Source: Escherichia coli
Lineage (GTDB): Bacteria > Pseudomonadota > Gammaproteobacteria > Enterobacterales > Enterobacteriaceae
DNA: 64,000 nucleotides
Assembly (NCBI RefSeq): GCF_003018255.1
Contig: NZ_CP027440.1
Reading direction: 5' to 3' (one strand)
Part shown: piece after piece, positions 19,733 through 54,101 of the stretch
Layout of the letters: each line of letters begins with the position of its first letter
Numbering within the stretch: position 1 is the stretch's first letter
Notes under the pieces: generated by a model
The model's input: only the letters and a program-made list of their open reading frames with translations
The model's database searches: none
Told to the model about the DNA's origin: nothing
Position numbers and translations under genes: made by a program

Positions 19733-21021
19733 AGGGAAAGATCACGCAACGCTGCTTTTTTGTACTAAATAATTCGCATTTTATGTTTAAAAATTGAGAT
19801 ATTCCTCATTACCTGAAGCTGTTTTTTATTGCTTATACATGATCAAATACTCCTTACATAATTAAGGAGAACAAAATGGAACTTAAAAAATTGATGGAGC
19901 ATATTTCTATTATCCCCGATTACAGACAAGCCTGGAAAGTGGAACATAAATTGTCGGATATTCTACTGTTGACTATTTGTGCCGTTATTTCTGGTGCAGA
20001 AGGCTGGGAAGATATAGAGGATTTTGGGGAAACACATCTCGATTTTTTGAAGCAATATGGTGATTTTGAAAATGGTATTCCTGTTCACGATACCATTGCC
20101 AGAGTTGTATCCTGTATCAGTCCTGCAAAATTTCACGAGTGCTTTATTAACTGGATGCGTGACTGCCATTCTTCAGATGATAAAGACGTTATTGCAATTG
20201 ATGGAAAAACGCTCCGGCATTCTTATGACAAGAGTCGCCGCAGGGGAGCGATTCATGTCATTAGTGCGTTCTCAACAATGCACAGTCTGGTCATCGGACA
20301 GATCAGGACGGATGAGAAATCCAATGAGATCACAGCTATCCATGAACTTCTTAACATGTTGGATATTAAAGGAAAAATTATCACAACTGATGCGATGGGT
20401 TGCCAGAAAGATATCGCAGAGAAGATACAAAAACAGGGCGGTGATTATTTATTCGCTGTAAAAGGAAATCAGGGGCGGCTTAATAAAGCCTTTGAGGAAA
20501 AATTCCCACTGAAAGAATTAAATAATCCAGAGCATGACAGTTACGCAATTAGTGAAAAGAGTCACGGCAGAGAAGAAATCCGTCTTCACATTGTTTGCGA
20601 TGTCCCTGATGAACTTATTGATTTCATGTTTGAATGGAAAGGTCTGAAGAAATTATGCGTGGCAGTCTCCTTTCGGTCAATAATAGCAGAACAAAAGAAA
20701 GAGCCAGAAATGACGGTCAGATATTATATCAGTTCTGCTGATTTAACCGCAGAGAAGTTCGCCACAGCAATCCGAAACCACTGGCACGTGGAGAATAAGC
20801 TGCACTGGCGTCTGGACGTGGTAATGAATGAAGACGACTGCAAAATAAGAAGAGGAAATGCAGCAGAATTATTTTCAGGGATACGGCACATCGCTATTAA
20901 TATTTTAACGAATGATAATGTATTCAAGGCAGGGTTAAGACGTAAGATGCGAAAAGCAGCCATGGACAGAAACTACCTGGCGTCAGTCCTTGCTGGGAGC
21001 GGGCTTTCGTAATCTTTCCCT
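19733..21021 (+). mobile_element. H-repeat (ISAs1-family) element, copy 3
   Basis: 1289 bp, same inverted repeats; nearly identical to copy 1. Confidence 0.8.
19876..21012 (+). CDS. H-repeat-associated transposase (ISAs1 family), intact
   Basis: 378 aa intact ORF. Confidence 0.8.
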
Positions 21022-22005: not shown

Positions 22006-22479
22006 ATGGGCAGGATAAGCCCGGGAGGAATGATGTTTAAGGCAATAACGACAGTCGCCGCTCTGGTCATCGCCACCAGTGCAATGGCGCAGGATGATTT
22101 AACCATTAGCAGTCTTGCAAAGGGCGAAACCACCAAAGCGGCGTTTAATCAGATGGTGCAAGGGCATAAGCTGCCTGCCTGGGTGATGAAAGGCGGTACT
22201 TATACTCCCGCACAAACCGTGACATTGGGAGATGAGACGTATCAGGTGATGAGCGCGTGCAAACCGCATGACTGTGGCTCGCAACGTATCGCTGTGATGT
22301 GGTCCGAGAAATCTAATCAGATGACGGGGCTGTTCTCGACTATTGATGAGAAAACGTCGCAAGAGAAACTCACCTGGTTGAATGTGAACGATGCGCTTTC
22401 TATTGATGGTAAAACGGTGCTGTTCGCGGCGTTGACCGGCAGCCTGGAAAACCATCCGGATGGCTTTAATTTTAAATAA
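22006..22479 (+). CDS. ivy: inhibitor of vertebrate lysozyme (periplasmic)
   Basis: 157 aa with signal peptide; conserved CKPHDC motif; position after yafV. Confidence 0.85.
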   Translation: MGRISPGGMMFKAITTVAALVIATSAMAQDDLTISSLAKGETTKAAFNQMVQGHKLPAWVMKGGTYTPAQTVTLGDETYQVMSACKPHDCGSQRIAVMWSEKSNQMTGLFSTIDEKTSQEKLTWLNVNDALSIDGKTVLFAALTGSLENHPDGFNFK

Positions 22480-25899: not shown

Positions 25900-26667
25900 A
25901 TGTGCGAATTGCTCGGGATGAGCGCCAACGTCCCTACCGATATCTGCTTTAGTTTCACCGGACTTGTACAGCGTGGTGGTGGAACCGGGCCACATAAAGA
26001 TGGCTGGGGCATTACCTTTTACGAAGGTAAAGGCTGTCGCACATTTAAAGATCCGCAACCCAGCTTTAATTCCCCCATCGCCAAACTTGTCCAGGACTAC
26101 CCGATAAAATCCTGTTCGGTGGTGGCTCATATTCGCCAGGCTAATCGGGGCGAGGTGGCGCTGGAAAATACTCACCCGTTTACCCGCGAGTTATGGGGGC
26201 GTAACTGGACTTATGCCCATAATGGACAACTGACGGGCTACAAATCACTGGAAACCGGCAACTTCCGCCCGGTCGGTGAAACCGATAGCGAAAAAGCCTT
26301 TTGCTGGCTCCTGCATAAATTAACGCAGCGTTACCCGCGCACACCGGGCAACATGGCGGCAGTGTTTAAATATATCGCCTCACTGGCGGATGAACTGCGG
26401 CAGAAGGGCGTTTTCAACATGCTGCTTTCTGACGGGCGCTATGTAATGGCGTATTGCTCGACTAATTTACACTGGATCACCCGCCGCGCGCCGTTTGGCG
26501 TGGCAACGTTGCTGGATCAGGATGTGGAAATCGACTTCAGCTCGCAGACCACACCGAATGATGTGGTCACGGTGATTGCGACACAGCCGCTGACGGGCAA
26601 TGAAACCTGGCAAAAGATTATGCCAGGTGAATGGCGCTTATTTTGCCTCGGGGAGCGTGTAGTTTGA
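25900..26667 (+). CDS. yafJ: class II glutamine amidotransferase-like protein
   Basis: 255 aa starting MCELLGM (N-terminal Cys after Met), GGAGG RBS. Confidence 0.8.
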
Positions 26668-51809: not shown

Positions 51810-52215
51810 TCAGTCATCTGTACGCGTTACTCTAACTGGCACTCGAACGTCGGCGATGGGGTTACCGATGGATCTGGCCGTTCCTGTGGCGTAAACGTTT
51901 TTATGTCAGTACCAACAGATTTACCACATTTATCATCTTAACAGTTTGAGTGTAAATGCAGGCTGCGTCGCAAAGGGAGGAAACTGAGTGGCGTGTTCAG
52001 TCTAAAATAGAGTTGATGCCAGCATACAGGGCGCAGCTGGTCAACAAGTCAACATTAATATAATGGAATATTCGGAGAGAAACGTCAGGCAGTTGACCTT
52101 AAATTAACAGGAAGATACATCCCCAGGAAAATTAATGCTGGTGTAATAAATACACCAACATTAATCCGGTATGATTATTAATCAGACAAATATCGTTAAT
52201 TCGTCGAATTTTGAA

Positions 52216-52356
52216 TCAACGTTTTTTCTTACGACCCTGAACGGCCTTAAAACGTGGATTAGATTTACAAATCACATACAGCCGTCCTTTTCGCTTCACA
52301 ATCTGACAGTCTGGATGGCGTTCTTTTGCGGTACGCAGAGAGTTAAGGACTTTCAT
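52216..52356 (-). CDS. ykgO: ribosomal protein L36 paralog (zinc-independent)
   Basis: 46 aa [46 protein letters not shown] translated by hand; start overlaps ykgM stop (ATGA). Confidence 0.85.
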
Positions 52357-52622
52357 CATGCCCCCTTTTTCGTGCTAACAAAACGACCAAAACGTTGGGT
52401 GAACCGTGCAACATTTCCTTCTGATGCCACTGTTCTCAGCTTCCCTGTATAGAACGGGTGCGATTTCGAAGAGACATCAATTGTTACGTACGGATACGTT
52501 ACGCCATCCAGCTCAATCTCACGGTCTGTTTTGATAGTCGAGCCGATTTTAAAGTACTCATCAACGCTGGTGTCGTGGAACACCACAGTACGATACTCAG
52601 GATGGATATTGGGTTTCATCAT
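52356..52622 (-). CDS. ykgM: ribosomal protein L31 paralog (type B, zinc-independent)
   Basis: 88 aa [24 protein letters not shown]…, lacks the Cys zinc ribbon. Confidence 0.9.
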
Positions 52623-52628
52623 TTTTAC

Positions 52629-52649
52629 CTGTTATGTTATAACATAACC
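52629..52649 (-). promoter_or_regulatory. Zur box upstream of ykgM-ykgO
   Basis: Palindrome GTTATGTTATAACATAAC immediately upstream of the ykgM RBS, matching the Zur consensus core TGTTATA-TATAACA. Confidence 0.65.
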
Positions 52650-52983
52650 GTAAAGATACATGCTCATCCGGATCATTTCAACACCCAATCACTGTGACTA
52701 TTTGTGGGATGTGGAATTTCCGCAACGGGGAAGTCTGGCATTGTTAGCAGCCATTGGCGACGCTCCCATAAACGCCTGGATGAGTGATTGATGATGGTTT
52801 CGCTGAGAGTATGGATTTTTCGAGAATGGAGGCTATCTCCACTTTACTGGCCGATGATTTATTGCAGCATGATTGATTACCTGACAATGTGTATTCCTCT
52901 CCCACGGATATAATAATTACTTACAAAAAAGGGAGAGGATGCATATTTTAAATATCACTGAAGTGAACAGTTTATTGCCGTTA

Positions 52984-53085
52984 TTAATAGAAATGGAGAA
53001 ATAAATAGGCGTATTCTACAATTGCGACAAAAACAACGATATTAATCAGTTTATGACTGATTTGCTGTACTTTATTCTCTTTCAT
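52984..53085 (-). CDS. ykgR: small hydrophobic membrane protein YkgR
   Basis: 33 aa MKENKVQQISHKLINIVVFVAIVEYAYLFLHFY found by hand translation; GAGGAAG RBS 6 nt upstream. Confidence 0.6.
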   Translation of the reverse strand: MKENKVQQISHKLINIVVFVAIVEYAYLFLHFY

Positions 53086-53565
53086 TGGTACTTCCTCGCT
53101 TTAAAAAAGAGTGCACTTCGTAAGTGCCCTTATATAAATAACGAGTTTGGTCAACCAATTTTTTGACATGTATCACAAATTTGAATAGATGTATTACATC
53201 GGCTATCTTTTATTGCCCCAACGTCATTGATATATGTCGCCTGAAATCAGTTACGGGAATGAGTCTGATCTCAAGACTGGCCCAGTCCTGGCGTTGATTG
53301 GCGCTGAGGAGCATATCGCATCTCATCGTAACGTCGTATCTCCTGGGGTGTTATACAAGATATCGTTGTAGGTAACCAGGGAGAGGAATTGAGTCTATTA
53401 AACCGTCAACTATGCCGGATACATACTGGATTACACTGCAGGCACGCCTTACGAGAGAACGTGCCGCAGTGACGGGTTAATTATCTGAAAGAATTTGCGA
53501 GGCTGTATCGGTTACTCATTGATTTGATAGTTTTACTCTCGGGAGAGTAATCGATATTTAATCCA

Positions 53566-53808
53566 TTAACGGAAACCAGCCAGTTCCTTTCGATGTCTGA
53601 ATTTCCTTGGCGTGACATAGGTATATCCTGTAATTACTAAACCAATATTTTGTGAGCGACGTTTATAATATTCGAGTTCTTGCTCAGAGATGGTTCCATC
53701 AGGATTAGCTGACCAGGTCGTCATAGGAGCCATAACGATACGATTACATGGCTTTATTTTTTCTGTCAGCATAAAAGGAGAAAACAGTGATAGGTGTTTA
53801 TTTGTCAT
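53566..53808 (-). pseudogene. Old Yellow Enzyme (NADH:flavin oxidoreductase) N-terminal fragment
   Basis: 80-aa ORF with OYE-like N-terminus (…NRIVMAPMT…) that terminates after about 60 conserved residues. Confidence 0.5.
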
Positions 53809-54101
53809 GACAATACCTCAAATGTTTATCTGATTTTGATGTGTATATTTAAACTGGTTAGTTGTTACCAGCTTTGGAACCAAGATTTTTGGCTTTGTTT
53901 TTATTTATAATTACTGTTAGTGCTTTTATTGATTTTATGGTGGAGAAAAGAGTAAAAATAGAAAGTTAATGATGTGTGTCAGAATATCGGTAAGAAGAAT
54001 GGCACAATCGTGAGGGTACGTTTATTCATAATAAATCTCCTGAAAGTTTAGAATTATTTTCGATACAGCCAGATTATCATTGTTACTAATAATGTGGTTA
54101 A

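Follow-up and report, generated by a model that had tools for sequence, protein, structure and literature searches.

Regulation of zinc-free ribosomal protein paralogs by Zur is best described for the ykgMO operon of Escherichia coli K-12 (Panina 2003; Gilston et al. 2014, PMC4219657), where two Zur dimers bind an 18-bp inverted repeat cooperatively, as a dimer-of-dimers (PMC4219657). The E. coli znuA/znuCB, zinT, and pliG operators share with it the RNNNYRNNRYNNYRNNNY architecture, the central TATA, and the dimer-of-dimers arrangement (PMC4219657), but the ykgM (L31p) site differs in being a perfect palindrome, and it is both the tightest (gel-shift Kd-app of 0.025e-18 M^2) and the most palindromic of the four operators (PMC4219657). 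Zur represses ~560-fold in vivo at the ykgM site, compared with 7- to 8-fold at znuC and pliG (PMC4219657). Expression of a ykgM-lacZ fusion, otherwise silent, increases almost 1000-fold upon addition of TPEN or in a zur::kan background (PMC7297116), and L31p represses translation of L31 (PMC9825181). In engineered E. coli Nissle, the ykgMO promoter already serves as a calprotectin/zinc biosensor (PMC10410751, PMC12279244). The same logic of a Zn-Zur-repressed, zinc-free paralog that is swapped into ribosomes under zinc starvation is seen in Bacillus subtilis (ytiA/rpmEB), Mycobacterium (the altRP operon), and Neisseria (rpmE2) (PMC9825181, PMC13343924, and in part general background), although outside the Proteobacteria the operator sequences differ from that of E. 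coli, and operon content differs from that of ykgMO, the mycobacteria having four or five alternative proteins.

The window examined here (the whole stretch of E. coli DNA that was analyzed, 64,000 nucleotides in length) contains what is almost certainly the E. coli ykgM-ykgO operon together with its Zur operator, and the site is an already known one, with nothing new in its identity. The features of the locus are collected in Table 1. A sequence-only reading of the window had proposed a Zur box upstream of zinc-independent L31 and L36 paralogs in the segment 52216-52649, which begins at the ykgO stop codon and extends 1 nt beyond the palindrome, and both parts of that proposal hold. The operator, the Shine-Dalgarno (SD) sequence, and both promoter-like hexamers are the same as those of K-12, for which Zur binding and repression are published (PMC4219657), and the gene order and neighbors (ecpR, ykgL, ykgO, ykgM, ykgR) are also those of K-12. 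The strain differs from K-12 in having a C for a T two bases upstream of the box, in two synonymous changes in ykgM (AAA replacing AAG at Lys2 and GCA replacing GCG in the final sense codon), and in the deletions present in the DNA upstream of ykgR. The reporter experiment with and without a zinc chelator that the sequence-only reading proposed is likewise already in the literature, as the ykgM-lacZ response to TPEN noted above.

Table 1. Features of the ykgMO locus, with positions numbered from the first base of the window
Feature	Coordinates	Strand	Basis or remark
Promoter-like -35, TTGAAA	52676..52681	-	Predicted; consensus scan, 17-nt spacer, 9/12 matches
Promoter-like -10, TATCTT	52653..52658	-	Predicted; consensus scan; 4 nt upstream of operator
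Zur operator, 18-bp inverted repeat, arms GTTATGTTA and TAACATAAC	52631..52648		Form RNNNYRNNR*YNNYRNNNY
ykgM Shine-Dalgarno, AGGT	52627..52630	-	Read from sequence; immediately 3' of operator
ykgM, type B (zinc-free) L31, 87 aa from annotated ATG	52356..52619	-	RefSeq, NCBIfam, Pfam
SD-like AAGGGGG for ykgO	52361..52367	-	Read from sequence; inside ykgM 3' end
ykgM/ykgO junction, ATGATG	52354..52359	-	ykgM stop TGA 52358..52356; annotated ykgO ATG 52356..52354
ykgO, type B L36, 46 aa	52216..52356	-	RefSeq, NCBIfam, Pfam
Terminator-like hairpin, 15-bp stem, 5-nt loop, then UUUUCC	52125..52165	-	Inverted-repeat search and RNA fold

The assignment of the two products to the zinc-independent type is borne out by their RefSeq names, by NCBIfam models, and by structure. 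YkgM scores 122.9 bits against the type B L31 model NF002462 (cut-off 86) and YkgO scores 91 bits against the type B L36 model NF002021 (cut-off 70), with Pfam matches to Ribosomal_L31 (PF01197, 8.9e-25) and PF00444 (4.7e-19), respectively. Residues 1-68 of YkgM are identical to chain D7 of PDB 6i7v (6i7v_D7), an E. coli ribosome, and residues 1-45 of YkgO to chain C5 (6i7v_C5). Type A L31 proteins carry their zinc ligands at CxxC...CxxC positions (Makarova 2001), and type B L36 proteins are marked by loss of the N-terminal CxxC pair. YkgM has no cysteine among its 87 residues, and YkgO has only Cys17 and Cys30, without a CxxC pair, and the zinc ligand sets known from the literature for type A L31 and L36 are thus absent from the two predicted proteins.

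The operator GTTATGTTATAACATAAC is perfectly palindromic over 18 nt, being identical to its reverse complement, and consists of two 9-nt arms without a spacer; its plus-strand context is ...CATCATTTTTACCT GTTATGTTATAACATAAC CGTAAAG.... Written as GTTAT GTTA*TAAC ATAAC, it agrees with every R/Y position of the RNNNYRNNR*YNNYRNNNY form and has TATA across its center. On the minus strand, from which both genes are read, the order is TTGAAA, 17 nt, TATCTT, TACG, the 18-mer, AGGT, AAAA, and then ATG ATG AAA CCC..., such that the 18-mer passes into the AGGT without a gap, in keeping with the earlier proposal that the palindrome sits directly upstream of the ykgM ribosome-binding site. The strand itself was absent from that proposal.

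Palindromy alone is not significant and is little proof of function, because 0.24 perfect 18-nt palindromes of any sequence are expected per 64-kb window, and at least one is present in 21% of block shuffles. GTTATGTTATAACATAAC has a single match in the window even when up to 3 mismatches are allowed (0.01 expected), and the 20-mer at 52630-52649 departs from the structure-based Zur pattern TGWNAYRWTATAWYRTNWCA at one position only (19 of 20 matching). A scan with TGWNAYRWTATAWYRTNWCA at no more than 1 mismatch finds this one site in the window against 0.01 expected, a test that is circular in part, since the znuABC, L31p, and zinT operators from which the pattern was derived include the K-12 version of the site being tested. 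The RNNNY skeleton by itself does not discriminate in the window (237 found and 268 expected). The older 23-bp Panina-type consensus GAAATGTTATANTATAACATTTC (GAAATGTTATA-N-TATAACATTTC) has no match in the window within 3 mismatches, and by eye ~16 of 22 positions agree with the operator in one register; this consensus is looser and earlier, has a different center, and was not what the structural work relied on, and the mismatch is not taken as excluding the site from the regulon. A TGWNAYRWTATAWYRTNWCA scan of the 334-bp ykgR-ykgM spacer does not find a second Zur-like site.

At 3 mismatches, TGWNAYRWTATAWYRTNWCA has further matches at 17002, 18754, and 20717, all within a single sequence shared by three transposase copies, plus a lone match at 26363; none of these is a Zur site. 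The transposase copies belong to a region (11279-21012) that codes for a 1,402-aa Rhs protein (RHS repeats, DUF6531, and RHS core) followed by three tandem DDE_Tnp_1 transposase open reading frames (ORFs) of the H-repeat type, of which the copy at 16161-17069 is truncated (302 aa) and those at 17913-19049 and 19876-21012 are 378 aa each. Two further perfect palindromes, of 16 nt, are present in the window, TGCAGGAATTCCTGCA at 8497-8512 and AAAAATATATATTTTT at 15503-15518, the latter just after the Rhs ORF. A gene for Ivy, an inhibitor of vertebrate lysozyme, is located at 22006-22479 on the plus strand and is unrelated to the Zur-regulated pliG; the TGWNAYRWTATAWYRTNWCA scan of the window gives no Zur-like site in its surroundings.

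The promoter-like hexamers are predictions from a consensus scan that shows no excess of sites (3, compared with 3.6 in shuffles), and with them the operator would span roughly -2 to +16. In the aligned relatives, the -35 hexamer is TTGAAA, TTGTAA, or TTGATA and the -10 hexamer is TATCTT, TATTCT, or TATTTT. At the other end of the operon, the terminator-like hairpin lies 51 nt downstream of the ykgO stop codon and probably ends the ykgMO transcript, judging from the RNA fold of 52095-52220 on the minus strand (126 nt, z = -4.97); a simple terminator scan missed it. The hairpin (52131-52165) is inside the annotated span of ykgL (51956-52181, plus strand), a gene that converges on ykgO; the closest genomes have ykgL annotated as a frameshifted pseudogene, and its first ORF here is only 35 aa. 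Upstream of the operon, 334 bp from the Zur box and in the same orientation, is ykgR (52984-53085, minus strand), which codes for a 33-aa small membrane protein. The terminator scan predicted no terminator between ykgR and ykgM, so that read-through into the operator may occur; including the whole intergenic region gave a 68% lower reporter background (PMC10410751).

Of 5,426 complete E. coli genomes, 5,061 contain the 701-bp region, annotated as ykgM/ykgO, and 5,057 contain the 74-bp promoter piece with the box; 4,708 of these 5,057 have at least 28 identical contiguous bases over 52620-52649. A megablast match to 52100-52800 is missing in 365 of the 5,426, and 13 matches to the locus are on plasmid-labeled records, such as the 10.6-kb NZ_AP027498.1. 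When the window is aligned with K-12, E. albertii, a divergent Escherichia, and two variant E. coli strains (six sequences in all), neither the 18-mer nor the adjoining AGG shows any change, while the flanks vary. The DNA upstream of ykgR is in decay, with only remnants of an NADH-dependent flavin oxidoreductase gene at 53604-53916. Relative to E. coli CFIAFB20120266, ~0.9 kb is missing inside the flavin oxidoreductase gene, as is a ~2.06-kb stretch carrying an alpha/beta hydrolase gene and, of two LysR regulator genes, the greater part of the first, whereas decay in K-12 takes a different form, with the ykgP pseudogene, eaeH, and IS3.

The exact 18-mer, scanned in one genome per species, is present in at least 120 contigs of alpha-, beta-, and gammaproteobacteria and, among the matches listed, in one spirochaete MAG. 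The spirochaete MAG contig is from Brevinema andersonii, and two Moritella strains have the exact 18-mer 3 to 4 times per genome. By tblastn, L31/L36 paralogs are beside the 18-mer at only ~10 of the 120 loci listed, and all flanking ORFs were therefore classified with Pfam instead, taking from each side the closest ORF directed away from the site (221 ORFs from the matches listed) and pooling the counts over ORFs, not per locus. Among these 221 ORFs, the families recovered were cobW/COG0523 (30 ORFs), FUR-family regulators (14), ZnuC-like ABC proteins (ABC_tran; 12), ZnuA and TonB-receptor Plug (8 each), Peripla_BP_2 and Ribosomal_L31 (7 each), FolE2 (GCHY-1; 6), ZinT (4), DUF1826 (3), and ZrgA (2). 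These are the usual, recognized members of the Zur regulon, and the behavior of the 18-mer as a zinc-regulon operator thus extends well past E. coli.

Two other readings of the palindrome bear on this assignment, and no evidence against the core Zur-operator claim was found. The palindrome might act as RNA, with a hairpin in the 5' leader next to the SD controlling translation, for example by autogenous binding of L31B, and there is some basis for this in that a 7-bp hairpin is possible within the 18-mer, with its end 2 nt ahead of the SD, and the rpmE leader contains an RNA hairpin to which L31 and L31B bind (PMC9825181, PMC7297116). The fold is unexceptional, however (-7.0 kcal/mol, z = -0.68, with 44 of 200 shuffles as good), 51900-53200 has no Rfam match, and the hairpin would be incomplete in the message because a transcript from the predicted -10 would start inside the palindrome. 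Furthermore, bL31 supplied in trans left ykgM-lacZ unchanged (PMC7297116), and among the matches listed in other genomes the 18-mer is found in either orientation beside unrelated genes, the behavior expected of a DNA site, which together make an RNA role very improbable. Even less credible is that the site is an operator for another member of the Fur family, such as Fur itself, or a functionless AT-rich palindrome that arose by chance. Fur boxes, like Zur boxes, are AT-rich inverted repeats, and the chance expectation for perfect palindromes given above is appreciable; yet the window contains no match to the Fur box consensus within 3 mismatches, the central TATA is described as Zur specific (PMC4219657), the neighbors of the 18-mer in the at least 120 contigs are zinc genes and not iron genes, the box is invariant in the Escherichia alignment while its flanks vary, and Zur dependence is published (PMC4219657, PMC7297116). 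The Zur operator is thus the reading that we retain.

The junction of the two genes, GCATGATGAAA, reads GGG GCA TGA in the ykgM frame and ATG ATG AAA GTC in the ykgO frame, with the annotated ykgO ATG sharing position 52356 with the ykgM TGA, giving a 1-nt overlap (TGATG), and with a second, upstream ykgO ATG at 52359..52357 giving a 4-nt overlap (ATGA). The sequence-only reading reported a one-base overlap written as ATGA; the one-base overlap stands for the annotated start, and the ATGA is the separate 4-base overlap of the upstream ATG, the two having been merged. The K-12 junction GCGTGATG (GCG TGA TG) is without the upstream ykgO ATG, which is present in this strain because the synonymous GCA replaces GCG as the last ykgM sense codon. 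There is similarly an in-frame ATG one codon upstream of the annotated ykgM start, at 52622..52620, which is ATA in E. coli HCM-28C-2 and in the divergent Escherichia and AAA in E. albertii. Unlike this variable first ATG, the annotated ykgM ATG is invariant in the six-sequence alignment, which supports the annotated MK- N terminus of YkgM. Both ykgM (52617-52622) and ykgO (52354-52359) therefore start with ATGATG in this strain, and the GCG-to-GCA change, like the ykgM ATGATG, could conceivably shift start use, yielding MMK- isoforms or an altered L31B:L36B ratio between lineages, although we regard such an effect as improbable.

The only live alternative about ykgMO concerns the coupling of translation between the genes, which the sequence-only reading also proposed. 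The junction is ATGA in E. albertii, TAATG in Aliivibrio, TGAtATG in Moritella, and TAAtcaATG in Enterovibrio, and in all eight junctions compared the ykgM-ykgO spacing is -4 to +3 nt, the exact overlap not being conserved. Such spacing is the geometry in which termination-reinitiation usually works, and translational coupling of ykgO to ykgM is plausible from this arrangement. Ribosomes might instead start on ykgO independently, at AAGGGGG, with the stop/start overlap reflecting compact packing only, a view to which we give appreciable, if lesser, weight. The SD-like sequence is strong and its spacing to the annotated ykgO ATG (4 nt) is workable, the junction geometry varies between species (ATGA, TGATG, TAATG, TGAtATG, and TAAtcaATG), and PMC9825181 and PMC7297116 report no ykgM-ykgO coupling experiment. 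Against independence is the close spacing maintained throughout the eight junctions, and in any case independent initiation and coupling at ykgO are compatible, not exclusive, mechanisms. An AAGG(A/G)G motif occupies the position of the ykgO SD-like sequence in Moritella, Aliivibrio, and the divergent Escherichia.

Zur binding, dependence on zinc and Zur, and incorporation of the products into ribosomes come from experiments on the identical K-12 sequence; the promoter hexamers, the transcription start, steric occlusion, the terminator, and coupling are what we infer here from the DNA. Regulation by the Zur operator would then proceed as follows. When zinc is sufficient, two Zn-loaded Zur dimers would sit cooperatively on opposite faces of 52631-52648, and since the repeat spans the interval from 4 nt past the likely -10 to the ykgM SD, their ~30-bp footprint would cover both the likely transcription start and the SD, blocking transcription several hundred-fold. 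As free zinc falls, Zur would lose the zinc from its sensing site and leave the DNA, and derepression would give a short-leader bicistronic mRNA. Initiation at ykgO would probably draw on two sources, the gene's own SD (AAGGGGG) and ribosomes that terminate on ykgM. The cysteine-free L31B and the L36B lacking CxxC made from this mRNA would replace the zinc-binding L31 and L36 in ribosomes, and L31B would also act as a translational repressor of the zinc-binding L31. Zinc-sparing ribosome remodeling has a textbook case in the ykgMO Zur operator, and the site serves as a positive control, in that a reading from sequence alone recovered a validated regulatory site together with its targets.
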